Origin: Alphaproteobacteria bacterium
GTDB lineage: Bacteria; Pseudomonadota; Alphaproteobacteria; Puniceispirillales; UBA1172
Assembly: GCA_038144675.1 (NCBI GenBank)
Contig: JAYQOF010000006.1
Location: 41,622-105,621, forward strand
Reading direction: 5' to 3'
Length of the DNA stretch: 64,000 nucleotides
The position numbers were made by a program, and so were the translations under genes. The notes beneath the pieces are model-generated. The model was not told the origin of the DNA, ran no database searches, and worked only from the letters and a program-made list of their open reading frames with translations. Positions 808-19,614 of the stretch are shown here, in pieces; positions within the stretch are counted from its first letter, which is position 1; the number at the start of each line of letters is the position of its first letter.

Positions 808-817
808 CCAGATATCA

Positions 818-1027
818 TTACAGCCGTTGCTGGCCACCTAGCCATTGCAGGGTAGTATGGGATAATGCCATATGCGGAGGCGTGAAGTTTTCTTTTTCTA
901 CCAGATAGAAAAAGCCAAGCCGCATATGACCGGAAAAAGATCGTTCCGGTTTTCGCGGTTGATCAAACATCCGGGCATGTGATCGCGCCATCTGATTTTC
1001 GATAGCATGTAACGTTAGCATTGACAT
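818..1027 (-). CDS. hypothetical 69-aa ORF, no recognisable family
   Basis: ORF track only. It sits at the boundary between core and AT-rich DNA and could be a gene remnant. Confidence 0.2.
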   Translation of the reverse strand: MSMLTLHAIENQMARSHARMFDQPRKPERSFSGHMRLGFFYLVEKENFTPPHMALSHTTLQWLGGQQRL

Positions 1028-1157
1028 AAATATATAGACGACGCTTTTCCATAAAACTTTAACGCAAAAGATGGTTTTATTTTCCAGAAATGTCGGAAAT
1101 AAAGTCGCTTATGCTTCTTGTTCGGGGTTGGTTATGGTTGGAATATCAAAAAAGTCA

Positions 1158-1328
1158 TTAGGGGGTTACATTACCATTTGTGACTTCAACGATTTTAATC
1201 ATGGTTTTGCGTGTGGGTATGTATTTGCCAGCAGCATAGCGTGACACTAGCGATGGCGATACATCCACGTCTTGAGCAAATTGCTTCACCGTTATGTTTG
1301 ATTTTTTTAACCACTTGGATAATTTCAT
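1158..1328 (-). CDS. small Cro/YdaS-like helix-turn-helix DNA-binding protein (56 aa)
   Basis: My own translation, below the ORF-track cutoff: MKLSKWLKKSNITVKQFAQDVDVSPSLVSRYAAGKYIPTRKTMIKIVEVTNGNVTP. The HTH core pattern is typical. A palindrome lies just upstream. Confidence 0.6.
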   Translation of the reverse strand: MKLSKWLKKSNITVKQFAQDVDVSPSLVSRYAAGKYIPTRKTMIKIVEVTNGNVTP

Positions 1329-1336
1329 ATTTTATA

Positions 1337-1353
1337 TGTGCGATAAACGCACA
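1337..1353. promoter_or_regulatory. candidate operator palindrome TGTGCG-ATAAA-CGCACA
   Basis: Perfect 6-bp inverted repeat with a 5-nt spacer, 9-25 nt upstream of the 1158-1328 HTH gene start. A near-identical motif lies at 1798-1814. Confidence 0.4.
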
Positions 1354-1383
1354 ATTTTGTCAATGTAAAACAGGGCTTAATGC

Positions 1384-1766
1384 TTAATTTGACGCCATAA
1401 TATTTTTTATAATTTCTGTCATGGCCTCACTATCAGACTTGATATCGTAATTATATATTTCTGTTGCGATGATGCTAAGAATATCGGTGGAAGGTGTTAT
1501 TCCCCGTTTTGATAGCTCTGTTATCGCTGCATCAATGCAGCTGGCTAATTTTACAGGTTCAATGAGAGTTACGCCTTCAAAATCAGAACTGATTTCATCA
1601 AAAGGAACGTCAAATAATTCAGATAGTTTCTTAATGTGCCACCGTGGCACCTGATCTTTTTCCGTTTAAATATCGTGATATTCTTGACCGATCAACATTC
1701 AGGATATGAGCCAATTTTTGCTGACTCATCCCATTTAACTTCATGATCTTCCTGATTTTTTCCATT
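1384..1766 (-). pseudogene. XRE-family HTH regulator with extra C-terminal domain, frameshifted
   Basis: The N-terminus from ATG at 1766 reads MEKIRKIMKLNGMSQQKLAHILNVDRSRISRYLNGKR and then stops. The sequence continues in another frame as PRWHIKKLSELFDVPFDEI (ORF 1384-1650). The switch sits at an A/T run at 1657-1661. Confidence 0.6.
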
Positions 1767-1797
1767 TTACATTATACCCTCTGAACATCATAACAAA

Positions 1798-1814
1798 ATT
1801 GCGAATAACGCACA
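1798..1814. promoter_or_regulatory. second copy of operator-like motif (ATTGCG-AATAA-CGCACA)
   Basis: Lies 32-48 nt upstream of the XRE gene start. TTGCGAATAA at 1799-1808 is also repeated inverted as TTATTCGCAA at 1836-1845. Confidence 0.35.
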
Positions 1815-2025
1815 TAATATTCGACCTCTTATGAATTATTCGCAATGATCAGTAAGATTAGTTCATTATATTTTGATCTGATAAACCGGTTGTCCCGCAT
1901 GACAGGACAGATGCGCTTTAATTGAGCGAAGATAGAGATAATCAGTAGCGCGTAATGTTAGTAAAGTTATCCTAATAAGATAACGACCCTGATCACTTAT
2001 ATTTTAGTCCTCATGCCTATTTTAT

Positions 2026-2069
2026 TTGCAGGCTGGTGTTTGCCAAAACAATATGGCTCGGCATACAGG
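2026..2069 (+). repeat. orphan, diverged copy of the tRNA-Thr promoter region
   Basis: ttgcaggctggtgtttgccaaaacaatatggctcggcatacagg aligns with 4625-4669 ttgcaggctgatgcttgc-aaaacaatatgtcgacaggtatatagg. No intact tRNA follows. 2090-2125 resembles a tRNA 5' half only weakly. Confidence 0.45.
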
Positions 2070-2386
2070 AAATGAACGTCTTACTTTTGCTGGAAGGCAG
2101 AGATGTTGAAGAGGATATTGGGGAAACTGCGCATCAATGAAAAGAAATGAGCTGAGCTAATAGACTCCATCATTTTCATAACCAAAAGTTGCATATAAAA
2201 GAGATTAATATTCAATTTATGAAAGAAAACTAACCCAATAGTTTCATAACACAATCGCCATGCTTTTCTGTTCCTTTTATGAAACCTAGAGATGTACAAG
2301 TTTTGATATGCTTATTAATTGGATTTTCAGATGTTTCAAAATATGGCCCTGAGCAGTCACCATTCATATGGAAAACTAAATTATCA

Positions 2387-2924
2387 TCAGCTGCAAACTT
2401 CATGATTGGGGGTGTTGAGATTTATAGTCATTCCTCCTATTGGAAAAACTTTATTTGGTGTTTCTTCTAAAAATATTTCACCACCTTCTTCAACACCATC
2501 AAGAGAAAGTAAAAGAAATGTATCAAGTCCATTATTTACTTCACTAAAATCAAGCTTTGCGGAAATTATTGGCATATTGTCATTATTAAATACTTTCGAG
2601 TACACTTCTGAAAAAACTTCATCAGCCTCTTCATATCCCATCGGCCCTATGTCTCTATCATAGGTACAGGCTGCTGTTTCTCCTATTGGCTCATCCCCAT
2701 AAGTTAATATTGTTTCACCAGTATAGAAATTCAGTCTACAGCTTTGTGTGATGAAATAGACACCTTTTTTCAAACGTAAAGTCACAGGAATTATTATAGT
2801 CTTCGGAATGAGCATAGGATGAAACTAAAGCAAAGTACTGATTGTTAGTATATATTTGAGCTGGTTGATCATAATTCCCTCCTATGCACCTAAAACATGT
2901 CCTTATTGAAGGGAGAGCAATCAT
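2387..2924 (-). pseudogene. hypothetical protein, apparently frameshifted (ORFs 2736-2924 and 2387-2815)
   Basis: Two overlapping minus-strand ORFs in different frames. The first start overlaps the stop of the upstream gene (ATGA at 2921-2924). No family recognised. Confidence 0.35.
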
Positions 2925-3346
2925 ATTATTTTTAGTATCGCCAGCATACTTTCTAATGGTTGAGCATTATTTCTGATGACTTCCCCATGGACTATCAATT
3001 GAATGCTGTTTATCTGGTAGCATCCAATGACTTCTTCATAAGTTTCATTAGTATAATTTCCACTTTCATATTTATTAAAGATAAGCTCTATATTCTTCTG
3101 CATGACTGTATCAGCTTGAAGGACGTCTTGTGAGTCAGGCCTAGTGCCATATACATATCCAAAATAACCTGCATATGCGACTTCGAGTGCAACTTCCATA
3201 TTATCTGCATTGCCATCAAGGTCATAAGTAATGGCAGCATCACCAATAATCATCCCGGCACAGGCCGCAGTATCAGTTAATTCAGATGCTAATACATGAT
3301 TGATTGAAAATAGAAATGTAAACGCTATATAAAGTTTCTTCATCAT
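2921..3346 (-). CDS. secreted hypothetical protein (141 aa)
   Basis: N-terminal signal peptide MMKKLYIAFTFLFSINHVLA followed by an acidic Tyr/Gly-rich mature part. No family recognised. Confidence 0.5.
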   Translation of the reverse strand: MMKKLYIAFTFLFSINHVLASELTDTAACAGMIIGDAAITYDLDGNADNMEVALEVAYAGYFGYVYGTRPDSQDVLQADTVMQKNIELIFNKYESGNYTNETYEEVIGCYQINSIQLIVHGEVIRNNAQPLESMLAILKII

Positions 3347-3560
3347 ACCCTACTTTATCTAATTCTAATAATGTTAATTAAACTAGTATTCTAAGTAATT
3401 ATCAAGCCAGCTATGCCCGACGTTATGGCTATCGATGTTATCGTGCTTCTACCTATTGATTAAAATGATGATGATCATAGATAGTTTATATAAAACATAA
3501 TCTGTCTTCTAGATTTTCACATTTATATCTTTTCAGGATAGTTAAAAGAGCGACATCATC

Positions 3561-4320
3561 ATGAAAAAGTTTATTTATTACTCATTGTTACCAATAGCGT
3601 TACTCTCATGGCATTTATGAATTCTGCCTGGTCAGAAGGAAATAGTTCTCATTTACAATATAAAAGTGGGGATAAAGAATTTCTGGCCTATCTTGAACAT
3701 TCAACAGGCACATCTAATGGAACAGTTATCATTATTCATGACTGGGATGGTCTGACTGAGTATGAAAAAATGAGAGCGAAGATGCTATCTGACCTTGGAT
3801 ACGATGCTGTTGCCATTGATTTATTTGGCATTGATGCGACGTTGGAGAGCCGGGTTGATTATATGCGTGAAACGGGGGCTTTTATGGAAATCGTAATGAA
3901 TTTAGGGCAAGAATTCATGCTGCCTTAAAGGCTTCTAAAAACAGTGGAATTAATACAGACCAAATAATCATTTGTGGTTATTGTTTTGGTGGAGCAGCAA
4001 CTCTTGAAGCAGCAAGAAGCAGGCATTGAAACAGATGGTTTCGTAAGCTTCCATGGCGGTCTTGGCACCCCTGAAGGCCAAATTATAATCAAACTACTGC
4101 TCCAATATTACTTTTACATGGTTCAGCTGACCCCGTATCGGGAATGAATGATTTGGCCAGTCTCCTCAATCAACTCGAAGAAGCCAATATTCCTCATGAC
4201 GCTGAAATCTATGGAGGTGCCCGACATTCATTTACTGTATCAGGGTCAAGGGACTATGATGAACAGGCAGATGCAAAATCATGGGAAGCCCTTGTCAGGT
4301 TTCTCAATAGGCTGGGTTAG
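3561..4320 (+). pseudogene. dienelactone hydrolase family protein, multiple frameshifts
   Basis: Signal-like MKKFIYYSLLPIALLS, then TVIIIHDWDGLTEYEKMRAKMLSDLGYDAVAIDLFG (ORF 3608-3928). Other frames give IICGYCFGGAATLEAA and LLLHGSADPVSG...ARHSF...WEALVRFLNRLG, ending at TAG 4318-4320. Confidence 0.75.
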
Positions 4321-4638
4321 ATGTTAAACCAAAATGTGGAATAAAGACGTTTCTGTTCTATCAATTAAAATAGAACTCATTTAGCTTCGGGTCAGCTTTA
4401 CAGCCTGTGCTAATCAGCACCTAATTACCTTAGGGCAGGGATAGATAGCAGGATTTTCCTCTCCTTAGCTCACTGCTTATTCACCAGCCCAAATTCCATT
4501 TACTCTGGTACCAACATCATCACTATACATTGACCATATGTCAGTTCACATATCCCCACTTTCATTGCAAATTACTACTTTCTGGACACCATACTGAGCA
4601 TTAGCTGGTGTCCCATACTCATTGTTGCAGGCTGATGC

Positions 4639-4667
4639 TTGCAAAACAATATGTCGACAGGTATATA
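4639..4667 (+). promoter_or_regulatory. sigma70-type promoter for tRNA-Thr
   Basis: TTGCAA (4639-4644), a 17-nt spacer, then TATATA (4662-4667), 13 nt upstream of the tRNA 5' end. Confidence 0.5.
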
Positions 4668-4679
4668 GGCTTTACCATT

Positions 4680-4755
4680 GCTGCTGTAGCTCAGTTGGTA
4701 GAGTAACTGATTCGTAATCAGTAGGTCGTTGGTTCAATTCCAATCAGCAGCACCA
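4680..4755 (+). tRNA. tRNA-Thr (anticodon CGU)
   Basis: 76-nt cloverleaf. Acceptor stem gctgctg/cagcagc, anticodon stem actga/tcagt, loop ttCGTaa (anticodon 4713-4715), T-arm gttgg-ttcaatt-ccaat, encoded CCA. Confidence 0.93.
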
Positions 4756-4821
4756 TATTTTTCTATTTATTTATAGTTGCTTTACATATTTAAAATGCTT
4801 AATATTGATTTATGCTCACAT

Positions 4822-4860
4822 AAAGTTATGAGCGTATTGTAAGCAATAAAACGATATTAA
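4822..4860 (+). repeat. 39-bp direct repeat, copy 1 (candidate integrase arm-type sites)
   Basis: aaagttatgagcgtattgtaagcaataaaacgatattaa matches 12695-12733 at 34 of 39 positions. It contains reiterated GTGAGCA-like heptamers. Confidence 0.5.
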
Positions 4861-4949
4861 AGCGAATAATCAGGAGTAAATACACCTGTTATGGACTTGC
4901 TAGCTGGAAATACTTTCTTCTCTTGCTTTAATCCTGTCAGAAACGACCT

Positions 4950-5204
4950 TTAGAGAGGCGAGGAGTCCGCTTGACTCCTGAGCAAGCAATTTTGCTTTGG
5001 CTTGCCCCAACCTCTGTCTAACAGCGCCTGAGCGGCCGTTCCGCGCACATGCTCATCCTTGCCATGCCTCATGAGCTCAACAAGCGTATCAATAGCCTCG
5101 CTAGTGTAGGTTCTAGCAAGCTCAGCAACCTTATATTCATCCTTTGGTCGCCCAGAAGGGTTGCCAGAGTGTCCTGAGATGTATTGACCACGGGAATTAC
5201 GCAT
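4950..5204 (-). CDS. phage-associated small protein with GNPSGRPK motif (DUF5681-like)
   Basis: MRNSRGQYISGHSGNPSGRPKDEYKVAELARTY...LLDRGWGKP. The motif is recalled from phage and plasmid proteins. Confidence 0.5.
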   Translation of the reverse strand: MRNSRGQYISGHSGNPSGRPKDEYKVAELARTYTSEAIDTLVELMRHGKDEHVRGTAAQALLDRGWGKPKQNCLLRSQADSSPL

Positions 5205-5228
5205 TTACAGTTATCTCAAAATATTTAA

Positions 5229-5941
5229 TTATTTATAACATCTAAACCCAATATAGACCACGGCCATATCTCTTGGCTTAGTTGCTCCATAATCTGCCTT
5301 CATTTGTTCTGATCCATACCACCATGAACCACCCATCGTAGCTTGTTGTTGGTCTTCTGGAGAAATCATAGCCCATTCCCAAACATTAGCCCCCATATCA
5401 TAAAGACCATTAACACCTTGTTTGGTTGTGCCCACCCTTGCATGCCCATGGCCTCTCATAAGCATTGAAGAGAAGTCTGGTTTGCTATTTGGGTTACCTT
5501 TGGGATTGCCGCAAGCATTTAGACAATTAGCTCCAATAGGGGACGTCCCAGTAGGGTATGGATAAGTTATTCCTTTTTCATATTCTGGATGAAAGGGCGT
5601 TGCTCAGTATATGCAAAGTTTATCCATTCATAGCGTAAAGGAAGCCTTTTACCCTTCCATATACAATAGGCTTGTGCCTCATCATATGTGATATGAACAG
5701 CTGGCTCATCAGGATGACCTTTAATGCCGTAAGGTGATTTCCAGTTCCACTCAGGCTTAATGACCCAACCGTTTTCATATACCATGCCGCCTTGTTTCTC
5801 GGCTTTTGTTATATATCCAGTTTGGTCGACATATTCTTGGAAGTCAGAAATTGATGTTTCAGTTTGATCCATGGATGAAGTATTTGCTTGGGCAAATGAT
5901 GAAAATATACAAATACTGAAAATAATCACTCGATTATGCAT
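5229..5941 (-). pseudogene. secreted formylglycine-generating-enzyme (FGE/SUMF1, NirV-like) domain protein, one frameshift
   Basis: Signal peptide, then HITYDEAQAYCIWKGKRLPLRYEW (ORF 5567-5941) and GLYDMGANVWEW...GGSWWYG...IGFRC (ORF 5229-5465). The two frames join across an A/T run at 5574-5578. Confidence 0.75.
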
Positions 5942-6236
5942 TCTGCCTAGCTTCTATGATACCTAGAGTTGCTGTTGTAGAATCTACTACATAGGGTACA
6001 AGTGTAGATAGAGCCATTTTTGTCCAGCAAACGGACGTTAAAGCTCCTGCCATAATAGTATCACCATGATTTATAAAGGCTAAAATTGTTCCCACGATAA
6101 TAGCAACCTTAATTGCACGCTTCATTACCTTTGAACTAAAAAATATTGAACTAAAATTTGAAATAGTGGTCATATAAACACCCCATTTAAACGACATCAT
6201 GTTGTTTATCCTAGTATACTGTGTCTGAGAATTCAA
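5934..6236 (-). CDS. small membrane protein resembling NrtS (putative nitrate/nitrite transporter family)
   Basis: KRAIKVAIIVGTILAFINHGD motif plus transmembrane segments. Its 3' end overlaps the FGE gene start by 8 nt. Confidence 0.45.
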   Translation of the reverse strand: MNSQTQYTRINNMMSFKWGVYMTTISNFSSIFFSSKVMKRAIKVAIIVGTILAFINHGDTIMAGALTSVCWTKMALSTLVPYVVDSTTATLGIIEARQNA

Positions 6237-7045
6237 ATTAGATTACTATTAAATTAAGGCATTTAATCGCAACTTGTGCGCCTTGGCATCCCGCCTAAAG
6301 CACTAAAGCTCAGGAGCAGTTATGACTGACATTCGTTCCCTTTATACGTCTTAAACACCACTCAGAAGCCGCTGAGACCAGTTTAAAGCTTGTTCCTGAT
6401 AATGTGATCAAGCAGGAGCTCATCACCTATGTACAGGCTGATAACGGTGTTTCAATTGTTCAAAAGACTTACTCGTGACTTTGTTGGCGATAGCCATAAT
6501 GAAAATCTTGTTGTCAAAGTATTTCGAACTCAACCTGAAGCTTAGGGAGAGTAATATAATTCACAGCTAAACAGATTGATGATCTTGCTCGAGTAGTAGC
6601 TAGAGCTTGGAGATAAGTCGAGTGGATTATCCAAGCCTCATCCTGCGGAATATGCTGTTTATTAACCATCAGTTAGCCAAGAACTCTTAAGCATAGAGAT
6701 GGTGATGTGTCTAAAGTAACCATACGATGAGGATAGTTGGATGTTACGAGATGATAGAGGAAGTGTGGGGTGCTCACATTTGAAGCTCATTATCAAAGAT
6801 CTACAAACATAGGATAATCAGATCTATCTGCTAACCCCAGCTGTTTCTCTCACTATTATTAGTTTTTTACAATTTGTTACAAAACCCAACTAAAAAAATA
6901 ATTTAGCTCTTGGATATGTATCATAAAATCAACGTGATTACCTTCGTGTATAAATGAAAGCCTCATATTTTTGTTGGTGTATAAAAAATTATCAGGAAAC
7001 CTTTTCCCCAAACAAAGTTGTGCCTGAAGGAAAAAAATGACTTTT

Positions 7046-7240
7046 CTAAAAAAACTGTACCGAAATCAACGTGGATTCCAAATGGCTCATCGGAATTAAA
7101 TTGTTCAGGGTTATTCTATTTGGGTTAATCTCAACTTCCCCTGTTGAAATGCAACTGTAAAAACCCTCTTCTAGTTTTTCCCCACCCCAACTAGGCGTGG
7201 CAAGCATAACAAAGGCGAAAGTGGCTAAGATGATGCGCAT
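7046..7240 (-). CDS. small signal-peptide protein (64 aa)
   Basis: MRIILATFAFVMLATPSWG leader, paralogous to the leaders at 7355-7537 and 9192-9410. Confidence 0.4.
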   Translation of the reverse strand: MRIILATFAFVMLATPSWGGEKLEEGFYSCISTGEVEINPNRITLNNLIPMSHLESTLISVQFF

Positions 7241-7354
7241 TAGTAAAATTTATCAACCTCAGTATATTAGTTACTAATATTCTCCTAGCTATAAACGATT
7301 GTCGTTCACATATTGCTCTAGCTGGGTTTCCAATAGTTCTATAATAGTAAAAAT

Positions 7355-7537
7355 TTAGAGACTTCGATTATAATAAAACCATAGATGTTGTGTATCCCAA
7401 TCAGAATTGGTGTATGCTTTAATCAATGTTCCACGCTCCATAGCTTGAAAACATTCTTCTAAGCTTACTCTTATCCAAGCATAACTAGGCGTAGCGAAAA
7501 TAACAAAGGCTATAGCGGCTAGGATGATGCGATACAT
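7355..7537 (-). CDS. small signal-peptide protein (60 aa)
   Basis: MYRIILAAIAFVIFATPSYA leader, paralogous to the 7046-7240 leader. Confidence 0.4.
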   Translation of the reverse strand: MYRIILAAIAFVIFATPSYAWIRVSLEECFQAMERGTLIKAYTNSDWDTQHLWFYYNRSL

Positions 7538-7538
7538 A

Positions 7539-8353
7539 TCAGCAATCCTTGTATTCTTTCTTCACGCATTCTGATGTTAATTCCCGAGTTTTCTCTATTT
7601 GTGATGGGGTCATTAACGATCCATAAAATTCGCGATTATGGTAAGCTTGAGCATCTCCATTAGCAATAGCAAGGTTTATCCATAAGCCCATAAGAATAAT
7701 CTTTTTGAACCCCATAGCCATTAAAGTATAACGTCGCAAGGAAAGTTTGTGCTTTGGCGTGACCCTGTTCACCTGCTAGCAAAAACCATTTAAAAGATTT
7801 TTGAGAATATTCGCGGTCGTTATCAAAATAATACAAACCCAATTCAAACTGCGCATCTTGGTTGACCTTGTTTTGCACCAAGTGTGTACCATTCATAAGC
7901 GGTTTTAAATCCTTATTCACCCCACCAATACCAATCTGATACATAAAGCCAAGCAAGCTTGTGCCTCAGGGTGACCTTGTTTTGCAGCAAGTGTGAACCA
8001 TTTCACTGATTCATAATCTTCTTCTTGAAGAAATCTACTATAATAATAATATATTTCCCCAAGGTGATATTGGGCATCAGAGTTGCCTTGTTCAGCTAGT
8101 ATTTTAAATCCGTTAACCGCTAATTTAAAATAGTGCTTTGCAGTTTTATAATTTTCTTGATTGAAACTCCATCACCATCAAAATATAGACGACCAATATA
8201 ATATTGGGCTTATAAAGTCGGCTTGCTCAGCAGAGTTTCCATTCCTTTAAAGCAGTTGCGTAATCGCCATTATTATATGCTTCAAAAACCCTTATCCCAG
8301 TCGAAGCCCAACTATGTGAGATAAAAGGACAAGTGCAATGTAGCTAGGATGGT
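7539..8353 (-). pseudogene. Sel1-like repeat (SLR) protein with signal peptide, heavily disrupted
   Basis: Starts MGTILATLHLSF at 8353. Sel1 repeats are spread over three frames: AEQGNSDAQYHLGEIYYY, AAKQGHPEAQACLA, AQFELGLYYFDNDREYSQKSFKWFLLAGEQGHAKAQTFLATLYFNGYGVQKD. Confidence 0.7.
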
Positions 8354-8650
8354 GCCCATTATTTTTCTCCATACATCTGGGGTCAGTCTGCAATGTATTC
8401 CCATCAAAATCAATATGAGCCACGTTACCATTGTGCTTACGACAAAATACCTGCAGGCCCTATTTCAGTAAAGCCCACATCAACTAAAGAATAGCTCTGT
8501 AGTGATGCTGAGTCTGTCTGACCATTAACATCAGCCTCGCATTTTGAGCAGACAATCTGGTGCGCAATAGAGTTGAGAAAGAATAAGTACTGGTAGGTCT
8601 GAGGTCATTATCTTGGCGAACATTTGCCCATAGCTATTGAGCCACGACAA

Positions 8651-8932
8651 TTATTTCTCGATAAATGTCATCGTATTCTCAAATAACTGAACATCAAATT
8701 GGCTGGCAAAGACATAGTATTTACGGATTTCAGACCCAAAAAATGACCTCAATTCTATCGACCTTATACTCATCACAACTGAATTTTCCTGATGAGTCAT
8801 TTTTGACCCCACCTTGATAGCAAAGTATGCGCTGTCACTATGTACTCTTATGACTACAGCATATTTCCATTTATCTATCATTTCTTGGGAATAAGTATTT
8901 TTTCTGTGTCCCATTTTTTTGTACCAGGGCAA
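8651..8932 (-). CDS. hypothetical protein (93 aa)
   Basis: ORF track only. No family recognised. Confidence 0.3.
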   Translation of the reverse strand: MPWYKKMGHRKNTYSQEMIDKWKYAVVIRVHSDSAYFAIKVGSKMTHQENSVVMSIRSIELRSFFGSEIRKYYVFASQFDVQLFENTMTFIEK

Positions 8933-9191
8933 TTATACTCGGTAAAAGCAATATTAGTATTCAAAAAATAACAGTGTTATAAGAAGAAAAATTCCTCATT
9001 TGATTAATCCTTAAAGCAAATACCTGTTCTGATTGTTATCAATTTGCATAATTAGTTGAATACTGAATGTTCATATTTATGCTAGTTCCGCCTCCAAACG
9101 TGTAGTGTTTTCATTGATGCAATATAACCCTTTGCGGCAAACTCAACTATCCCTAATTTATCAATTAATTGAAGTTGGCTTTTAAGATTAT

Positions 9192-9410
9192 TCATCTGAT
9201 AGAATCGCCCCCAACAGTGTTTTCACGGATACTTATTAATAATCTTTCCTCTGTTTTTCCAGGTCCGAAGAAGCGTCCGTCATTTGCAACTTCCATATTA
9301 TCTACATTGCTACAAGTATTTTCTTCTGCAAAGCTAGGCGATGCAAACAGTAAAATAGGGAAAATAACCAATATGATCGCATTGCTATTTCCTATTGAAA
9401 ATAATTTAAT
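9192..9410 (-). pseudogene. third small signal-peptide protein, canonical start codon missing
   Basis: My own translation: IKLFSIGNSNAIILVIFPILLFASPSFAEENTCSNVDNMEVANDGRFFGPGKTEERLLISIRENTVGGDSIR. The position where Met is expected is ATT (9408-9410). The plus-strand ORF 9169-9414 is its antisense shadow. Confidence 0.3.
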
Positions 9411-9994
9411 ATGACGTAACTAGCCTCTTTGCAAACGTCCATGAATCATGCCTTCATTACAGGTGTAATATATTGACCTGTAGCCACATAATGCTCTTGA
9501 GGAAGGCTCAAAGAGTACATCTGATTAAGCTGAACCATTAAATCCAATGTTTGCTTCAGTTTGTTCAGTTAATGACTTTTCCAAACATTTATCGACAGTC
9601 TGCAATTACCTGAAGCAAATAACCAAGATTTGCGAGTCAGTAAAAAACTGATCTGACAGGCTCCTGACTATCATTTCTTGTATTTTGCAATAGATTAGCA
9701 ATCCACAAGTATAATGCAGAGCATCTCAGCGCCACATAACCAGCACTGCTTGGATCATCAATATGTTTGCGAAATTTATTGAGGAGGCTCTAACTCAAAT
9801 CTTCAGACCTTATTTTGATAAACATACTAACCAAATTGTTTAAAATCGCGCTCGATATTACTCTCATGATTGTTTCATGCTAAACATAACTTTATATAGT
9901 ATATATAGGTGGTACTAATTCAAGACCATAAATTCATCAAATTAATCCTGACGGGTACTAAATTTGGAACTTAAAAAGAGCACATATTTTATAA

Positions 9995-10470
9995 TTAACG
10001 CTCATCTAGCTCCATTTCTGCCTCTCTTCGTATGGCTTCAATACCGTAATCTGCATTAGGCCATTTGGGTTTAGGTCGCCAACGCATCCAATCATTGGTT
10101 GGTTGATGCCCTAAATAACCTTTATCAGTGAGGATGTATTCTGAGGCGCGTCTGCCTATAAAGCTACCTATTCTGGATCTCTTAATAAAACCATGCTCAA
10201 TAAGTTTTTTTATAGCTGATTGAGCAGTATTTTTTACTGATATGCAGAATATCTGCCGCCTCAGCCAAGCTTAGTGATATTTTGCCATTATTTTTGCCAT
10301 GGTAGCGTCTGCAGATCTCTAAATATAACTTACATGCGGCAGGAGGCAGATGTCGCCATGCTTCACTTGCTAAAACGCTGTGCCTCATCTTGTAATTGCT
10401 TATCAAGTTCTTCTATATTGCCTCTCTTTCTTTGCCTAGATGAGTACTTAGAGCGCATAGGATCAGGCAT
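9995..10470 (-). pseudogene. phage/island-type HTH DNA-binding protein, two frameshifts
   Basis: A strong Shine-Dalgarno ribosome-binding sequence (aggaggtgagg) precedes ATG at 10470, giving MPDPMRSKYSS. Then MRHSVLASEAWRHLPPAACKLYLEICRRYHGKNNGKISLSLAEAADILHISK (ORF 10197-10406). After a T/A run at 10230-10235 it continues NTAQSAIKKLIEHGFIKRSRIGSF...WPNADYGIEAIRREAEMELDER to TAA 9995-9997. Confidence 0.6.
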
Positions 10471-10493
10471 CCTCACCTCCTTTACTCTTAGAC

Positions 10494-10796
10494 TTAGGTT
10501 TTTTGCCTATAAGGACTCTTGCCCATTCTGAATGGCCATAGAGGGCATCCTGTATGAACACATAGTCTGGCCTCCTTTGGACTGCCTCCACTGCACTCAA
10601 CACAGTTCTTTCTGATAGCTTTTATGGGAGAGGTGTTGGTTAATCCCATTTCAACGAGAGTTTCCCCTATTTCAAGCGGATTTTTTGCCGACAAAGTGTT
10701 GTCCGGTATCCTGACTTCCCTTGAGAGGTTCTTTAAGAAAAAAGGGGCTTTAAGTGGGGTGTTTTTCATAATACACCCCACTTTATTTTCGTTCAT
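10494..10796 (-). CDS. small Cys-rich (zinc-ribbon-like) phage-associated protein
   Basis: IRKNCVECSGGSPKEARLCVHTGCPLWPFRMGK, a pattern recalled from small proteins of alphaproteobacterial prophage islands. Confidence 0.45.
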   Translation of the reverse strand: MNENKVGCIMKNTPLKAPFFLKNLSREVRIPDNTLSAKNPLEIGETLVEMGLTNTSPIKAIRKNCVECSGGSPKEARLCVHTGCPLWPFRMGKSPYRQKT

Positions 10797-11081
10797 GGGC
10801 TAGGGAGTGCTTATGAGGGGTGATCTGCTCATTAACCCACTCATCAAGCCACTCAGTCAGGTTTGTAAAACGCTCTTTTATTGATGAGGGTATATTTTGC
10901 CCCAGACCCTGTCATAGCCTGTCTAGCGAGGTTGTGGGCGAAGAAGGGAGGCCTAGGCTGTTTAAATATTCTGCGGCCTCTTTTCGGCTTAGTAGTCTTT
11001 GCATTTAGAACTCCAAAAAATATTACTGATATAGTTTGGGTATCATTTGCAAGACGTGAGTAGTTAGCAAAAACCTTCCTA

Positions 11082-11543
11082 TTATGAGGGTTTTTTACCA
11101 CATACGTTTTTTCTGTTGCCTGCTTCTTTTTTTAGAAGTTTGTATCTAAGCAGATCTGTCCTGAGGTAATTGCCAGTCTTGGGACAATAATTCCAGAACA
11201 TGCTCATCTGAAGCAAAAAATTTGTTTCTTCATAGATGTCGTATTTCTTGGCATCTACAAATATACAAAGCCAATCTAATATATAATCTTCCTGTGAGAC
11301 ATCTTTGACTGGCCTTCCACCACCACGAGGGGGTCTTAGAGATTTGTTAGATAATAACCAGTAATTTAAACTGGGATCTTGGTCTCTGAGTCTTTCTAGA
11401 AGGAATAGCACATGGTCTGATGGAGTAGATTTTCCTTTTTTGCAATCGGCTAACAAATCAATTAATCCATCCCATTTCCCAGCTAGTAGATCATTTATTG
11501 CTCTTAGTTGAAGGGGATAATAATTATCATCTTTATCTGCCAA
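11082..11543 (-). CDS. hypothetical island protein (153 aa)
   Basis: Intact ORF immediately downstream of the integrase, containing PPRGGGRPVKD. No family recognised. Confidence 0.4.
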   Translation of the reverse strand: MADKDDNYYPLQLRAINDLLAGKWDGLIDLLADCKKGKSTPSDHVLFLLERLRDQDPSLNYWLLSNKSLRPPRGGGRPVKDVSQEDYILDWLCIFVDAKKYDIYEETNFLLQMSMFWNYCPKTGNYLRTDLLRYKLLKKEAGNRKNVCGKKPS

Positions 11544-12679
11544 CTATATCCTCCCATATCTGACCATTGCTGGAATACTTGACGTTTCTGCTCTTTGTAT
11601 TCTGCAAGGTTATAGATGCCCGCTCACACCGCTTCTGGCAAAGGTTTTATGACCTATACAGGCATCAACAATATGCGGCGGCATTCCTGCTTCATTACAA
11701 TGGGTATCAAAAGCGTGCCTTAATTGGTGATATGTCCAATGCGGAATATTAATATTGAGCTTTTTCTTTATTTTATCTCCTAGCCAGATGGGCTTCTCGC
11801 CATTTACAGAAAATAGGTATGAGCCTTTATTCTTGGTTGGGATAAACTGCTTTGCGAAGGGTTAGATAAATATGGTTATCTAAGCTATTCTTTGCCTTAG
11901 CCGCTGGTAACGTCCACCAATCACCATTGATATCATGTTCCTCAAGCGTTGTTGTCTCTCTGTTTCTTTGCACTGTAAGAATGATAAACTTGAGAAGATT
12001 TTCCTGAATAGAGGTTAACCGTTTCGATGCTTCCAAATAATTTTGATTTCGTCGAGAGTAATCAGGCGTTTGATAGGTTGGGGTTTTTTAGGAGGAGATC
12101 TAGCAAGAGGTGGTTTTCAATATAGTCACGATCTAAACACCAGCTTAACAAACCGCTCATAGCACTCCATATTGCCAATGCCGTTCTATCTTTTCCTTTA
12201 GATTTAGCTTCATCAGTAATCGAATAGATATCTGAAGATCGAATATGAATAATCATATGCTTTGATAGGCGAGGTAAAATCAATTCTTAAAGATATTGAT
12301 CGTATCTTTTCGATGTTTTGGGCTTCGCTCATTTAGATAGACATCGACATATTTATCAAAAGCATCAGCAAGAATAGGAATACTTTGCTTCTTATGTAAA
12401 TCTTCAAGGTATGTGTGAGATGAAAATTCACTTGCTATCGCTTTGCTCGTTCTCGAGCTTCATCTACAGAGATAACATCACAGCCAGCAATTTTGATCTG
12501 TTTAGACCTACCTGACTGTTTGATGCGGCCTTTAAAGACAAATGATTTACGTGTCTTAGTTACACAAACGGCAAATCCCTTAAGTTTATCATCCTACACA
12601 AAAATTGGCTTTTGAGGGTCATCACAAAGAAAGCTTGCTAATGAGCTTAGCTGTTAATACTGGCACTAGCACCCCCCAT
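11504..12679 (-). pseudogene. int: P4-type tyrosine integrase, multiply disrupted
   Basis: N-terminal arm-binding domain LTAKLISKL...IFV*DDKLKGFAVCVTKTRKSFVFKGRIKQSGRSKQIKIAG with in-frame TAG at 12594-12596. Core region LTVQRNRETTTLEEHDINGDWWTLPAAKAKNSLDNHIYL. Catalytic region HWTYHQLRHAFDTHCNEAGMPPHIVDACIGHK...YNLAEYKEQKRQVFQQW. At least five frame changes, one at the C/G run 12672-12677. Confidence 0.85.
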
Positions 12680-12694
12680 TTGATTTAAGGGGGT

Positions 12695-12733
12695 AAAGTT
12701 GTGAGCATATTGTGAGCAATAATATGATATTAA
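12695..12733 (+). repeat. 39-bp direct repeat, copy 2 (candidate integrase arm-type sites)
   Basis: aaagttgtgagcatattgtgagcaataatatgatattaa, containing GTGAGCA twice. It lies just upstream of the integrase start and about 115 nt before the tRNA fragment. Confidence 0.5.
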
Positions 12734-12845
12734 CATTGATATACATTACATTAAGATGATAATGAATGTATAGCAAAAAATTAACTAATATACTGTATTT
12801 AAATACTTTAGTTTATTATTTTTGGTTTGGGCAATTGAGTTATTT

Positions 12846-12904
12846 GTTAGAGCAACTGATTCGTAATCAGTAGGTCGGAGGTTCAAGTCCTCTCAGCAGC
12901 ACCA
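12846..12904 (+). repeat. displaced 3' fragment of tRNA-Thr(CGU) (att site remnant)
   Basis: gttagagcaactgattcgtaatcagtaggtcggaggttcaagtcctctcagcagcacca. The anticodon arm and 3' acceptor/CCA match the intact gene. The T-arm differs (ggagg/cctct). The upstream sequence cannot pair with cagcagc, so there is no acceptor stem. Confidence 0.8.
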
Positions 12905-12980
12905 TAATCAAGATTTACTTGATGACCTAACGCGGGATTAAGGCTTGATAAGCATATGATCTGGTATAAAGTTAAAGACC

Positions 12981-13395
12981 ATGAAACCATCGATAACTTA
13001 CCTTCTTTTTCTCGCCCTATTTATGATCGGAAAACTTGCAATGGCCAGTGAAATCCAAATTGATATACTTACTGAAGGCACTGGTGATACTGCTGAAACG
13101 GGCAAAACCGTCTCTGTCCATTATGAAGGCCAGCTGTTGGATGGGTCAGTATTTGATGCATCAAGACCCAGAGGCCAGGCCTTTCGTTTTACCATTGGGG
13201 CGGGGCAGGTCATCCCCGGCTGGGAACAGGGTAACTGGCATGAAAGTCCGGGGAAATCAGCTGACCATCCCGCCAGAACTTGCCTATGGATCATCAGGGG
13301 CAGGTGATGTCATCCCACCAGATGCTACATTGATTTTCACCATTGAACTGCTTGAGGTTTCCAACCCCCGCGATACTGGGTCAGGCGACACCTGA
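12981..13395 (+). pseudogene. FKBP-type peptidyl-prolyl cis-trans isomerase with signal peptide, frameshifted
   Basis: [44 protein letters not shown] (ORF 12981-13307), then [43 protein letters not shown] in another frame. The break is near 13230. Confidence 0.8.
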
Positions 13396-13731
13396 TGAAC
13401 TGCTTTCCGCGCAAAAGGACGGGGTGATTATCATTGATATCCGCCGGGAAGAAGAATGGCAGGAAACCGGACTGATTGAAGGGGCGCAACCGATTACCGC
13501 GTTTCAGTCCAATGGCAGCCTGCATCCGGAGTTTTCCGGGATAAATTTTTTTGCTGCGGTCGAAAATCCGGACACCCCTATTCTCATCTATTGCCGATCA
13601 GGAAACCGGACAACCAGCCTGGGCAACGCATTAATTGATCAATTAGGGATTTTTCCAACGTCACCCATTTATCAGAAGGTATCATAGGCTGGCAGGCAGC
13701 GGGCAAGAACACGGTATCCTATCAACCGTAA
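13343..13731 (+). pseudogene. single-domain rhodanese-like sulfurtransferase, C-terminal frameshift
   Basis: GVIIIDIRREEEWQETGLIEGAQPI...ILIYCRSGNRTTSLGNAL. The true C-terminus EGIIGWQAAGKNTVSYQP is in another frame and ends at TAA 13729-13731. The start is uncertain. Confidence 0.55.
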
Positions 13732-13740
13732 CTGGGCTGA

Positions 13741-13770
13741 TGCGATAAGATTTATCGCAGTTTTTGTTTT
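13741..13770 (+). terminator. rho-independent terminator
   Basis: tgcgataa-gat-ttatcgca hairpin followed by gtttttgtttt. Confidence 0.5.
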
Positions 13771-13834
13771 CAATTCAATCAAAAACCGTTAAGGATAGGG
13801 CATGATTGATATTATGGATGAATAACGCACGCAG

Positions 13835-14632
13835 ATGAATGTCAGCCAATCCTCATTATCGACCCCCATATACTTGAAGTAAAGGATTTGCATAAATCCT
13901 ATGGAGCGCTTGAGGTTTTAAGAGGGGTAAGTTTTACTGCCCCCAAAGGTCAGGTTATTACCTTTATCGGATCATCCGGATCAGGGAAATCAACACTGCT
14001 GAGATGTTGTAACCTGCTTGAATTAAGCCATTCAGGTGAGATTATTTTTAATGGTGAGCCTGTTATATGGAGCGGTCAGGGGGCATCCCGGCAACCAGCT
14101 AACCGGCAACAGATTACGGCTATGAGAACCAATTTGGCCATGGTATTCCAGCAATTCAATTTATGGTCGCATATGACCATTCTGGATAATGTGATTGAAG
14201 CACCGGTGACGGTGCTGGGGCGGTCGCGGGATATTATGCGAAGTATAGGCCTTGATCTGCTGGATAAAGTTGGGATTGCAGATAAAGCTGATGCGTACTG
14301 GCCATCACAATTATCAGGTGGCCAGCAACAACGTGCTGCGATTGCAAGAGCACTTGCTATGGAACCTATGGCTATGCTGTTTGATGAGCCGACTTCCGCG
14401 CTTGACCCGGAATTGGAACAAGAGGTTGTTCGCGTGATTAAAGCGTTAGCAGAAGAAGGCCGTACCATGTTACTGGTAACCCATGATATGCGACTTGCCC
14501 ATGATCTATCAGATCATGTTATATTTCTTCATCAAGGAAAAATCGAAGAAGAAGGGAGCGCCAGAGGATATTCTGGTTCATCCCAAAACAGAACGGTTGC
14601 AGCAATTTTTAAGCGCTGGTGCTGTGAGCTGA
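13835..14632 (+). pseudogene. polar amino-acid/opine ABC transporter ATP-binding protein (HisP/OccP-like), frameshifts at both ends
   Basis: Walker [10 protein letters not shown], signature LSGGQQQR, Walker [12 protein letters not shown]. The N-terminus [11 protein letters not shown] is out of frame with [12 protein letters not shown]. The C-terminus reads correctly as [23 protein letters not shown] only after a shift, ending at TGA 14630-14632. Confidence 0.85.
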
Positions 14633-14665
14633 GATATTAAGCGCTAATATCTTTTGGAGGATGTT

Positions 14666-15386
14666 ATGAAAAAAGTAATTTTAGCAACAGCTTTAGCTAG
14701 CATGCTGGCAATGCCAGCCATGGCAGAAACAATCCGCATGGGAACAGAAGGGGCTTACCCTCCCTATAATTTCATCAATGATAAAAACGAAGTTGATGGA
14801 TTTGAACGCGAGGTAGGTGATGAGCTTTGTGCGCGTGCCAATCTGGATTGCGTATGGGTTGTAAATGACTGGGACTCTATTATCCCAAATCTGGTATCAG
14901 GGAATTATGATACGATTATTGCTGGCATGTCCATCACGGCAGAACGTGATGAGGTGATTGACTTCCACTCAGGAATATTTCCCGCCAAGCCCTTCCATGT
15001 ATGTCGGCCTGTCAGGTGGCAGTGTTGATATAAATGGCGGGGTTATTGCTGCACAGACAGGTACTATTCAGGCAGGTCATGTGGCATCATCTGGCGCAAC
15101 TCTTGTTGAGTTTGCCACCCCTGATGAAACCATTGCGGCGGTTCGTAATGGTGAAGCTGATGCCGTTCTTGCTGATGGTGATTATCTGATGCCAATCGTT
15201 GAATCAGGCGGTGAGTTAGCCGTTGTTGGTCAGGTTGGAATCGGTGGCGGTATCGGCATGGGTATTCGCGAATCTGATTCAGCCCTGAAAGCCAAAATGG
15301 ATAAAGCGATTGCTTCCATGAAATCTGATGGCACCCTGAATACCATGATTAAAAAATGGTTTGGTGATGATGCGCTGACATTCTAG
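14666..15386 (+). pseudogene. periplasmic polar amino-acid-binding protein (LAO/HisJ/Occ-type), frameshifted
   Basis: MKKVILATALASMLAMPAMA signal peptide, then TEGAYPPYNFINDKNEVDGFEREVGDELC...IIAGMSITAERDEVIDF. It continues in a second frame (ORF 14958-15386). Confidence 0.8.
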
Positions 15387-15421
15387 TCAACGCCGTTCAG
15401 GTGAAGCCATAACTATCTGGT

Positions 15422-15441
15422 CGGGGCAAATTTTTGCCCCG
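15422..15441 (+). terminator. intercistronic hairpin after the binding-protein gene
   Basis: cggggcaa-attt-ttgccccg. No clear T-run, so it may be an attenuator or mRNA-stabilising hairpin rather than a full terminator. Confidence 0.35.
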
Positions 15442-15481
15442 GCTTTAAGGTCTAACCACTGATGCAAGATTAGATATAATC

Positions 15482-16354
15482 ATGTTTTCCTGTACCAATC
15501 CCGATCAGATTGAAGGCTTCAACTGGCTTGTCTGTTATCTTGGCACGGCCAAACATATGGCATTCTATCAATCTTTTCTGGTGGTCTTTGTCACTGGTGT
15601 TGATAACGGCGCCTCTGGCCATGTTATTCGGGCTTATGGCGGCATCTGCCAGCCGGTCAGCGATACGGATCATCCAATGGCCCGGAAAAATCTATATTGC
15701 TATGGTCAGGGGTGTTCCTGATATCGTTTTCTTTCTTTTTGTCCCGCTTGCCCTGGATCAGGGTATTGAATATATCCGCCATCGTATCATGTGTTCTGAT
15801 CAAACCGGATCAGTCTGGCAGGGCAATGATTTCGTTGTTTGTGATATGGCAAAAATGCCGCTTTCCAGTGCTAGCCCGTGGGTGCATGATGCTTATGGAT
15901 TTATGCTGGCCGTGACAGCTTATGCCATTGTCTTTGGTGCTTTTGTGGGTAATGTTCTGGCAGGTGCCATGGCGGCAGTGCCGCGCGCTCAACTGGAAAC
16001 CGGATCAGCCTATGGCATGACAAGGCGGCAGGTATACTGGCGTATTCTTTTCCCACAAATGTGGATTTACGCCTTGCCCGGTCTATCCAATTTATGGGTG
16101 CTTCTGATAAAGGCGACGCCATTGCTGTTTCTTGCTGGGGATACAGGATATTGTGTATTGGGCACGAGCTTGGCAGTGCCAAAACATCGGCTTATAGCTA
16201 CCCGCATCCGGATTGGCGGGTCTGGTATTTTCTGGCCTTGCTGATTTTCTATCTGTTTATAACATGGGTCAGTGAGCGCGTGTTTAGCTGGTTGAACCGC
16301 CGGTTTTCACGCGGCCAGTCCATGTTGATGAACAGCCAGCAGCCAGATGGGTAA
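15482..16354 (+). pseudogene. ABC transporter permease (HisQ/OccQ-like), frameshifted
   Basis: ETGSAYGMTRRQVYWRILFPQMWIYALPGLSNLWVLLIKATPLLF (ORF 15510-16244), then ELGSAKTSAYSYPH...FYLFITWVSERVFSWLNRRF (ORF 16061-16354). Confidence 0.75.
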
Positions 16355-17197
16355 TCCTATGTCTTCATGTCTAGATGCATTTCAGAATTATGGATTACGC
16401 GCCATCGGGTATGGCGAACGGTTATTACCCAAGGCTGATATCACCATATGTGAGCAATTTGCCCTGATCGGGTCAGGATTGATCTGGAATATCTTTTTCG
16501 GGGTTCTGGCGGTAATGATCGGGTACTGGTTTGCACTGGCGCTGGCGGTTGGAAAAATGTCACGATCATGGTTCTATCGCCAGTTTTCCATCGGGTTTAT
16601 CTATCTGTTTCGTGGCACGCCATTATTTATCCAGTTTTTCTTTGCCTATGAGCTGTTTGTTTTATTGCGAAAGGTCGGGATCACGCTTGATCTATGGGTG
16701 GTTTCGATTGATCTGGAAACGCGCTGGCTGACGCGGGCATGGCTGGGGGCATTACTGGTTTTGATATTCACATCGGCTTATTCAGCGGAAATATTTTATG
16801 GTGCCTTGCGGTCAACACCACGGGAGTAGTAGAAGCAGCCATGGCATATGGCATGTCAGGCTGGCAACGGTTCTGGCGCGTGATATGGCCACATATGATG
16901 CGGCTGGCATGGCCATCTTATACTAATGAAGCGATCTTTCTGTTTCATGCCACAACACTGGTATTCTTTTCCGGATTTCCGGCATGGCGGCAATCGGGAG
17001 ATGCGCTTTATTATGCGAATTATTTTGCTGACAAAACATTCAATCCCTTTATTGCCTATCCGATCATTGCCTTTTATTTTATCATATTTACCTTGATGAT
17101 AATCACCTTGTTCGGATGGATAAACCGCCGCCTAAATCGGCATCTTCCACAGGATGCCAAACGCCGGTTATCTATTCGGCTTAACCTTATTCGCTAG
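16347..17197 (+). pseudogene. ABC transporter permease (HisM/OccM-like), frameshifted
   Basis: FIYLFRGTPLFIQFFFAY...SAYSAEIFYGALRSTP, then VVEAAMAYGMSGWQRFWRVIWPHMMRLAWPSYTNE in a second frame. The break is near 16815. Confidence 0.75.
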
Positions 17198-17202
17198 GGG
17201 AT

Positions 17203-18353: not shown

Positions 18354-18406
18354 TGTGATGATAATGATATTGTGATGAAACGGAAACAACAGCATAAGCA
18401 GATGAT

Positions 18407-19576: not shown

Positions 19577-19614
19577 TTGAAAGTGGCTTTCATGACCGGC
19601 ACTCCGTCCTATTT

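Follow-up and report, generated by a model that had tools for sequence, protein, structure and literature searches.

The window described here is a stretch of 64,000 nucleotides from contig JAYQOF010000006.1, part of a metagenome-assembled genome (MAG) of the SAR116 group (Candidatus Puniceispirillales) with a long-read-like assembly. The genome comprises 2.27 Mb in 6 contigs, carries 39 tRNAs and has a completeness score of 75.7%. Near the left end of the window lies a tRNA-Thr(CGU) gene, followed by an 8.1-kb element (4756-12847) that ends in a tyrosine integrase gene and a second, tRNA-like copy of the target. The guanine plus cytosine (GC) content of the element is about 0.38 (0.34-0.44), compared to about 0.46-0.48 around it and 0.46-0.52 further right. 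The features at the two ends are the following.

4680..4755 (+): working, chimeric tRNA-Thr(CGU) gene (attL, the left attachment site); ARAGORN and Rfam; 4680-4703 native
4699..4728 (+): interval holding the strand exchange (tRNA positions 20 to 49); from the partition of G4698/T12847 and T4704/C12853
11555..12708 (-): P4-type tyrosine integrase; Pfam Arm-DNA-bind_3 and Phage_integrase; 7 frame changes and 1 stop as assembled
12829..12904 (+): hybrid pseudo-tRNA of 76 nucleotides (attR, the right attachment site); full-length Rfam match; 12829-12847 decoy, 12848-12904 native

The locus was compared with 10 relatives of the same genus, with an order-wide set of 192 genomes, and with short-read metagenome contigs from four runs of three studies, which were aligned on the island. 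The closest relative, G005, is 95% identical to the window in the flanks.

The tRNA-Thr(CGU) gene and its displaced half

The only tRNA that ARAGORN calls in the window is the tRNA-Thr(cgt) gene at 4680-4755, the single one of its kind among the 39 tRNAs of the genome. It fits the Rfam tRNA model with 74.6 bits and has every stem paired. The longest direct repeat between positions 4000 and 14000 joins this gene to the far end of the element (4695-4757 and 12844-12906, 63 nucleotides, 89% identity) and includes 24 identical nucleotides (4705-4728 and 12854-12877). The T-arms of the two copies differ, being GTTGG..CCAAT in the working gene and GGAGG..CCTCT at the far end. No third copy of either tRNA-like sequence is present in positions 1-20000 of the window or in the whole genome. 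An earlier note, made from the sequence alone, had described the two copies, the 24-nucleotide segment and the differing T-arms, and ARAGORN, the repeat search and direct reading confirm this description.

The note regarded the far-end copy as a 3' fragment (12846-12904). The native 3' part is indeed there, but the copy is a full-length pseudo-tRNA that matches the Rfam tRNA model from end to end (12831-12901, 36.1 bits, gathering threshold 29). There is mispairing in its acceptor and D stems, and ARAGORN does not report it as a tRNA. The last 57 nucleotides (12848-12904) agree with the tRNA of G005 at 57 of 57 positions, whereas the first 19 (12829-12847) agree with tRNA-Thr at only 7, and the switch at 12847/12848 is sharp. 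The pseudo-tRNA is thus an element-borne 5' decoy fused to the displaced native 3' part.

The unoccupied site is preserved in G005 (contig C16), where HemY, tRNA-Thr and FKBP follow one another and where positions 1-2057 of the window, the tRNA and positions 12844-19999 are contiguous. The T-arm of the G005 tRNA is GGAGG/CCTCT, as in the far-end copy. In another relative (G007, contig C197) a copy of the gene is likewise followed immediately by FKBP. G005 and 8 more of the 10 genus genomes carry the native 3' part at 100% identity, and G001 at 97%. The variant 3' part (GTTGG/CCAAT) occurs in one of the 192 genomes of the order, the window's own. Because the far-end copy has the T-arm of the genus and the variant is found only here, it is the working gene that has a foreign 3' part; its native counterpart has been left 8 kb away. 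The proposals of the earlier note that an integrative element occupies tRNA-Thr(CGU), that it supplied the 3' part of the working gene, and that an empty site with a ggagg/cctct T-arm should exist in relatives are all borne out by the 63-nucleotide repeat, the integrase between its two copies and the G005 site.

The working gene is a chimera: its first 24 bases are native and the element supplied all the others, including T4704 and the T-arm (GTTGG/CCAAT with the loop TTCAATT). Six positions are changed relative to the genus-typical sequence: C25 to T, a T-loop G to T, and two compensatory T-stem pairs (G-C to U-A and A-U to U-A). To judge from these paired changes and the Rfam score of 74.6 bits, the island sequence restores an intact tRNA gene.

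The position of the strand exchange is constrained by two informative positions only. The native and element assignments of G4698/T12847 and T4704/C12853 fall on opposite sides, and the interval thus defined, 4699-4728, includes the anticodon loop. The att repeat begins in the D-loop (4695/12844) and the boundary between element and native sequence is at 12847/12848. The earlier note had placed the recombination inside the anticodon arm, which the interval permits but does not require. An exchange in the 3' strand of the D-stem (TAGAG, 4699-4703, equal to 12848-12852) would be the most parsimonious because T4704 would then have come with the element, whereas placing it in the anticodon loop costs one more substitution (C to T at 4704) in a gene that does not otherwise vary across the genus. 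The chances of the two placements are nevertheless about even.

Two contigs of the G007 MAG (C197, locus L014, and C146, locus L016) have in common 60 nucleotides upstream of tRNA-Thr and its 5' half, and then diverge. C197 runs to FKBP with a slightly different T-arm, and C146 enters different DNA. They are probably the empty and occupied alleles within one population. A joint from 4703 to 12873 in the metagenome material (run X5, one contig, side 20) was considered as another empty site and rejected, being so short that it could come from the tRNA-Thr of any bacterium.

The integrase and the origin of the locus

The fragments of the integrase match PF13356 in the N-terminal part and PF00589 in the C-terminal part, at 27.6 and 31.9 bits, respectively, which is the domain composition of the P4-type enzymes. 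An intact homologue of 395 residues (P0001), carrying PF22022, PF13356 and PF00589, served as reference. The pieces cover its residues 1-388 at about 90% identity, in frames that run, from 12708 to 11555, as -2, -3, -2, -1, -3, -2, -3 and -1, with a stop near codon 8. They contain the motif HQLRH and a C-terminal stretch with a tyrosine, which may belong to the catalytic residues R..HxxR..Y. The gene starts about 120 nucleotides from the pseudo-tRNA and is divergent from it, at the end of the element far from the working tRNA.

Related elements with intact integrases, which the earlier note had suggested searching for, do exist, but they lie beside tRNA-Val(TAC) and not tRNA-Thr. The metagenome scan gave seven loci with integrase relatives, five of which are close (L024-L028, 90-98% identity). 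Two others (L029 and L030, 26-29% identity) were excluded, and one further locus was taken from the GTDB representative genomes. All four loci that include the upstream region (L023, L024, L025 and L028; L026 and L027 are without this end) have the integrase divergent from, and about 120 nucleotides away from, a complete tRNA-Val(TAC), which is followed by tRNA-Asp in two of them. At the DNA level the integrase-proximal arm is present in 3 of the 192 genomes of the order, all of one genus. No relatives of P0001 were found in IMG/VR, although absence from that collection is weak evidence, and neither was an exact match to the attP-type part of the tRNA (attP being the attachment site of the element).

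The earlier note had concluded that the integrase is dead and that the element is degraded and locked in. The stop and the frame changes, seven in number, are present in the assembly; a dead gene is not supported by the evidence. Relative to G005, in which the open reading frames (ORFs) are intact, 25 indels occur over 7.1 kb of the housekeeping flank. Nineteen proteins were used as tblastn queries, and the seven with good cover, which are 52-93% identical within the pieces, give the following numbers of frame breaks: DUF5681 1, FGE 1, NrtS 0, p85 1, Rep-like 3, Cys-rich 0 and p89 0. In the integrase region the short-read contigs are ≥99.5% identical to the window in substitutions and differ from it by indels; the stretch 10954-12585 has 27 substitutions. 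Counted as substitutions to gap letters, the alignments give 1 to 3 (11251-11614), 1 to 5 (11665-11896), 1 to 3 (11514-11819), 1 to 6 (11817-12066) and 27 to 22 (10954-12585). Three of the four runs have an extra C after 12280, at the very position of one of the integrase frame changes.

The ratio of nonsynonymous to synonymous substitution rates (dN/dS) of the in-frame integrase pieces against intact homologues is 0.091 and 0.080 (341-367 codons) with dS of about 0.5, compared to 0.125 for the Rep-like gene and 0.215 for the FGE gene. The integrase pieces therewith bear the signature of strong purifying selection. Had seven frameshifts arisen naturally, the gene would have spent a long time evolving neutrally, and dN/dS values of 0.08-0.09 do not allow this. 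The seven frame changes and the stop are most likely assembly indels, and some of the frame breaks could be real. The words 'degraded' and 'locked in' cannot be upheld, because breaks of this kind are seen throughout the assembly and the short-read contigs differ by indels. With the breaks read as assembly errors, nothing shows the element to be degraded, and it may still move.

Most likely the 8.1-kb element entered tRNA-Thr(CGU) by tyrosine-integrase recombination, leaving a chimeric tRNA and a hybrid pseudo-tRNA, and its broken frames are assembly indels. The agent of insertion would be the integrase itself. The tRNA-Thr(CGU) gene would have recombined with an attP that is itself tRNA-like, by an exchange between tRNA positions 20 and 49. 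At the left junction this would produce a working tRNA whose first 24 bases are native and whose remainder, together with the T-stem, was brought by the element. At the right junction, a non-functional 5' part of the element would be joined to the displaced 57 native bases. The insertion would have carried in a core for integration and replication (integrase, 153-residue ORF, Cys-rich protein, HTH_36 / Rep-O-like protein and a small protein that may be an excisionase) and a cargo of secreted or membrane proteins (Sel1, signal-peptide, NrtS and FGE-domain proteins), plus a DUF5681 protein.

It is hardly conceivable that no site-specific recombination occurred and that the T-arm mutated in place, with the downstream copy arising by local duplication. 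The T-arm does vary in the genus, and the G007 copy on C197 has A51G and the TTCAATT loop, but the six differences of the working gene include two compensatory pairs, 9 of 10 relatives have the gene at 100% identity, and the flank divergence from G005 is only 5%. Furthermore, an integrase lies within the interval, the identity changes abruptly from 7/19 to 57/57 at 12847/12848, and the decoy 5' part is colinear with the integrase-tRNA spacer of related elements. An old, decaying remnant, fixed in place after real nonsense and frameshift mutations destroyed its integrase, is also improbable. The seven frame changes and the stop of the assembled gene, the lack of any ORF longer than 153 residues in 4756-12845, and the integrase-less related remnants in G009, G010, G004 and the genome's own tRNA-Val locus would all agree with decay. 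However, frame breaks are about as frequent in the housekeeping genes beyond the island, which are intact in G005, the near-identical short-read contigs differ almost solely by indels, and the integrase retains about 90% amino acid identity within its pieces and a dN/dS of 0.08-0.09.

An assembly of the island in at least two steps is somewhat less far-fetched, although still unlikely. An older cargo block without an integrase (DUF5681-FGE-NrtS plus the small secreted proteins, comparable to G010 and G009) would have resided at tRNA-Thr and would have acquired a tRNA-Val-type integrase and replication module by recombination between islands. The identity to other copies is indeed uneven: 4824-6178 reaches 90-93% against copies elsewhere, both at other loci and in other genomes, the value for 6462-8579 is 72-84%, and 9893-12905 has 85-91% identity to tRNA-Val-linked contigs. 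In addition, G009 and G010 hold parts of the cargo at the tRNA-Thr site without integrase or repeat, and islands that grow beside a tRNA by accumulating material are described in the available part of the tycheposon preprint (10.1101/2020.12.28.424599). On the other hand, the island has no tRNA fragment inside it that would divide it into two units, the more recent arrival should lie beside the intact tRNA and not at the distal end, and the tRNA-Val-linked locus L026 has the integrase, the core, Sel1 and the signal-peptide cargo in the same order and in one piece.

Several observations sit uneasily with a single integrase-driven insertion whose frame breaks are assembly errors. In the usual P4-type layout the integrase is directly downstream of the intact tRNA and co-directional with it, whereas here it is distal to the intact tRNA and on the opposite strand. 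The indels relative to G005 are not confined to homopolymers. The metagenome sequences are contigs, not reads, and cannot prove an origin from the same strain. No circular form, attP junction or second complete element of the tRNA-Thr type was recovered. Finally, in G010 the same left end of the island lies beside a tRNA with the native T-arm, so that either the attP differed there or the history of the T-arm is more complex.

Mosaic islands at two tRNA hot spots

The spacer between the integrase and the pseudo-tRNA is colinear with that of the tRNA-Val-linked loci, which makes the pseudo-tRNA positionally homologous to their tRNA-Val(TAC). Identity to these loci is about 93% in 12666-12775, although the dS of the integrase is about 0.5; it is 69% in 12776-12830 and falls to 14 of 25 in the first bases of the tRNA-like part. 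The decoy 5' part is identical to tRNA-Val at 10 of 19 positions compared to 7 of 19 for tRNA-Thr. When the decoy is matched to all 39 tRNAs of the genome, tRNA-Val(TAC) ranks first, with 16 versus 15 (mean 11, standard deviation 2.3). As the lead is so small, the tRNA-Val origin of the decoy rests mainly on positional homology.

The tRNA-Val genes beside the integrase in L024 (1171-1246) and L028 (173-248) have a C4·A69 mismatch in the acceptor stem, as read from the alignment. Such a mismatch would be expected for a tRNA-Val hybrid with an element-borne 5' part and a host-derived 3' part, of which it is only a hint. A native tRNA-Val with the 3' variant of L024 and L028 occurs in none of the 192 genomes. 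A search of G002 and G004 for a second tRNA-Val copy or a lon-hupB flank gave one tRNA-Val in G002 and no match to the flank.

The cargo, too, is found at both tRNAs. Downstream of tRNA-Val(TAC), both G005 (90% identity) and the window's own genome have a DUF5681-FGE-NrtS module. The DUF5681/FGE copies of the latter (C5:1455283-1457696; C4:82159-85780 and 97978-98591) are 87-93% identical; one is situated between tRNA-Val(TAC) and tRNA-Asp, and DUF5681 is present in two inverted copies some 2 kb away from tRNA-Leu(GAG). In G010 the left end of the island is 92.8% identical, far above the 71-75% of the chromosomal flanks, which indicates horizontal spread. These islands constitute a genus-level family of mosaics that uses two tRNA hot spots. 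The element in the window looks like a tRNA-Val-type integrase module joined to an attP half that restores tRNA-Thr.

Since intact relatives of the integrase, with about 90% amino acid identity, are found beside tRNA-Val(TAC), a recent change of target from tRNA-Val to tRNA-Thr is suggested. How this could have happened is a matter for a tentative proposal, more doubtful than not: the lineage might recombine in the D-arm and change its target by swapping the tRNA-restoring 3' two-thirds of its pseudo-tRNA attP, with such a switch preserved in the window. The D-arms of tRNA-Val(TAC) and tRNA-Thr(CGU) are nearly identical base for base. The decoy 5' part, at 10 of 19 identity to tRNA-Val, has drifted at about the neutral rate given the dS of the integrase, and the 3' part of the attP is tRNA-Thr-like with a T-arm of its own. 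If true, this would be a natural retargeting of a tRNA-specific integrase through modular attP exchange, in which a new target is gained with few changes (about 10% amino acid divergence from the tRNA-Val-linked integrases).

The remaining features of the element are listed below.

4821..4860 (+): 40-nucleotide direct repeat, left copy; 35 of 40 positions identical to 12694-12733; TTGTGAGCA-like words
4918..5204 (-): DUF5681 protein; Pfam PF18932; 1 frame break; tblastn with the intact 101-residue homologue of G005
5235..5941 (-): secreted FGE-sulfatase-domain protein; Pfam PF03781; 1 frame break
5946..6173 (-): NrtS-family small membrane protein; NCBIfam NF038050, 50.5 bits (cut-off 25); frame intact
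7046..7561 (-): two small proteins with a common signal-peptide-like N-terminus; ORF translations and repeat
7696..8325 (-): Sel1-repeat protein; Pfam PF08238; tblastn with the L026 Sel1 protein; at least 2 frames
8358..8580 (-): small Cys-rich protein; tblastn with homologues of 85 (G005) and 82 (G010) residues; 1 frame break
9998..10603 (-): HTH_36 / replication-initiator-O-like protein; 3 frame breaks; tblastn pieces 86-93% identical
10512..10769 (-): 87-residue Cys-rich (zinc-ribbon-like) protein; 78% identical to an 87-residue ORF of L025; frame intact
10795..11001 (-): small protein in the position of an excisionase; 52% identical to an 89-residue ORF of L025
11082..11543 (-): 153-residue ORF adjoining the integrase; from the ORF list
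12694..12733 (+): 40-nucleotide direct repeat, right copy; spans the integrase start codon and 5' leader; two TTGTGAGCA words

The 40-nucleotide repeats, found by local alignment and a motif scan, lie one on each arm around the core and are candidate arm-type sites of the integrase. Homology to the tRNA-Val-linked islands begins at 4824, within the left copy. In two runs (X1 and X7) contigs join 12732/12733 to 4894, that is, the integrase leader to the end of DUF5681, through a linker of 31-32 nucleotides that resembles 4862-4893. These joints could reflect a circular or tandem form collapsed at the 40-nucleotide repeat, but were set aside as evidence for one. They contain no tRNA-like core and join exactly across this repeat, and they would be accounted for just as well by an assembly jump at k=31 or by a natural variant with a deletion from one repeat to the other.

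The cargo named in the earlier note (an FGE-domain protein, an NrtS-like protein, a Sel1-repeat protein and small secreted proteins) is corroborated by the Pfam and NCBIfam matches and, for the signal-peptide-like N-termini, by eye. The FGE protein is 90-92% identical, in two frames, to an intact 238-residue protein of G005, and the NrtS protein is 92% identical to its homologue there. The DUF5681 protein has a weak likeness to phrog_2538, a terminase small subunit family (E value 4e-5). An intact 202-residue homologue of the Rep-like protein in L025 matches Pfam HTH_36 and phrog_678/186/270. Neither of the two Cys-rich proteins (8358..8580 and 10512..10769) has a match in the family scans. 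The same is true of the protein at 10795..11001, which is a possible excisionase by position only. The 153-residue ORF corresponds in position to ORFs of 159 and 181 residues in L025 and L026, with only an N-terminal DKDDN motif in common (by eye); it has no family match, and the L025 ORF (orf159) has no tblastn match in the window at E≤1e-4. No conjugation or capsid genes were found in the gene set of the element, and among the 15 proteins scanned there is no primase or helicase, the replication-type matches being HTH_36 / Rep-O-like only.

The N-terminus MRIILA.IAFV.LATPSWG is found also on cargo proteins of G005, G010 and L026. It is nearly identical on unrelated mature parts (7046-7249 and 7355-7561 in the window, 10740-11560 in L019, 399-776 and 1618-1839 in L020); one Sel1 protein belongs to this set, and the L026 member begins at 3867. 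Between the NrtS gene and the signal-peptide proteins, at 6248-6319 (+), there is a weak SAM-V riboswitch-like match (31.8 bits, gathering threshold 41, E value 0.047), with no obvious gene after it on the plus strand. The metagenome depth has a sharp peak at 6005-6566 with many loose contig ends at 6270 and 6309, from which it follows that a motif of about 40 nucleotides is common to other, abundant marine organisms.

The flanks are variable as well. A low-GC stretch (0.35) on the 5' side of the tRNA, 2057-4625, is absent from G005 and has parts in G009 and G010. It contains two ORFs with no assigned function (2387-2824 and 2921-3349, both on the minus strand) and a frameshifted dienelactone hydrolase gene (3542-4320), and is a second variable region. 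On the other side, 12981-13687 encodes an FKBP-rhodanese fusion with a signal peptide, split by indels here and intact in G010 as an ORF of 252 residues. The gene is also represented in L020 (3155-3913) and L011. Copies 67-70% identical to it lie downstream of tRNA-Val(TAC), not tRNA-Thr, in G002, G004 and L024. An exchange between the two hot spots has thus affected either this flank or the tRNA halves.

The locus is a clear case of how the flexible genome of SAR116, an abundant group of marine bacterioplankton, is built up by islands that target tRNA genes. In several species, related modules for secreted FGE, NrtS, Sel1 and proteins with a common signal peptide move back and forth between the tRNA-Thr and tRNA-Val hot spots. 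The locus is also a caution that an apparently 'dead' integrase or 'decaying' island in a long-read MAG can be an artefact of assembly.

Comparison with known systems

In its ecology the element bears a likeness to the tycheposons and the marine phage satellites, which makes it no more than a candidate for either family. Like the tycheposons of marine picocyanobacteria, as presented in the available part of the preprint (10.1101/2020.12.28.424599), it is a small cargo-carrying element of an oligotrophic marine host that encodes a tyrosine recombinase specific for tRNA genes and lies between a complete and a partial tRNA, at a hot spot that holds remnants of earlier elements in relatives. Unlike them, insofar as that part of the preprint describes them, it has no identified hallmark replication gene (primase, helicase or polymerase), and its host is an alphaproteobacterium. 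The marine phage satellites, virion-encapsidated integrative mobile elements (VEIMEs) and elements like phage-inducible chromosomal islands (PICI-like), are similar in size (about 8 kb) and in having a tyrosine integrase, an excisionase-sized gene, a replication-initiator-like gene and, if the weak DUF5681 match (E value 4e-5) is taken as such, a terS-like gene (10.1101/2022.07.26.501625, in the portion available). In contrast to the satellites as portrayed there, the element has no capsid genes and no packaging genes other than the weak DUF5681 candidate, and neither relatives of its integrase nor a copy of the attP-type tRNA part turned up in IMG/VR, where absence counts for little.

A recombination site that reaches the D-arm of the tRNA has a parallel in Klebsiella, where a D-loop sublocation was proposed for some islands, those with the leu5A-IX and arg2A-VII integrases (bioRxiv 10.1101/2020.11.02.365908, from the part available). 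The likeness extends to the relatives of the element, in which the integrase is upstream of a complete tRNA. The Klebsiella islands covered in that part belong to another phylum, however, and the island in the window is downstream of the working tRNA-Thr.

The closest general model is that of the islands in tRNA genes (tDNA) collected in Islander (Hudson, Lau & Williams 2015, PMC4383910). According to the accessible portion of that paper, 3760 of 3919 islands leave a 3' fragment, and anticodon-centred and T-stem sites are the common attachment classes. Compared with the typical case as it appears there, the stranded native block is long (57 nucleotides, from the D-stem), it is fused to a decoy so that the scar scores as a tRNA, and the interval deduced for the exchange reaches beyond the anticodon arm on its 5' side. 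In other respects the locus agrees with that account, in which an internal tyrosine integrase accompanies a regenerated tRNA at one end and a co-oriented displaced 3' fragment at the other, the gene being restored by the island. The tDNA and a cognate in the same orientation, an internal integrase, a restored tDNA and an unoccupied site in a relative are all found in the window and in G005. The element is thus an ordinary tDNA island that arrived by a well known insertion route.

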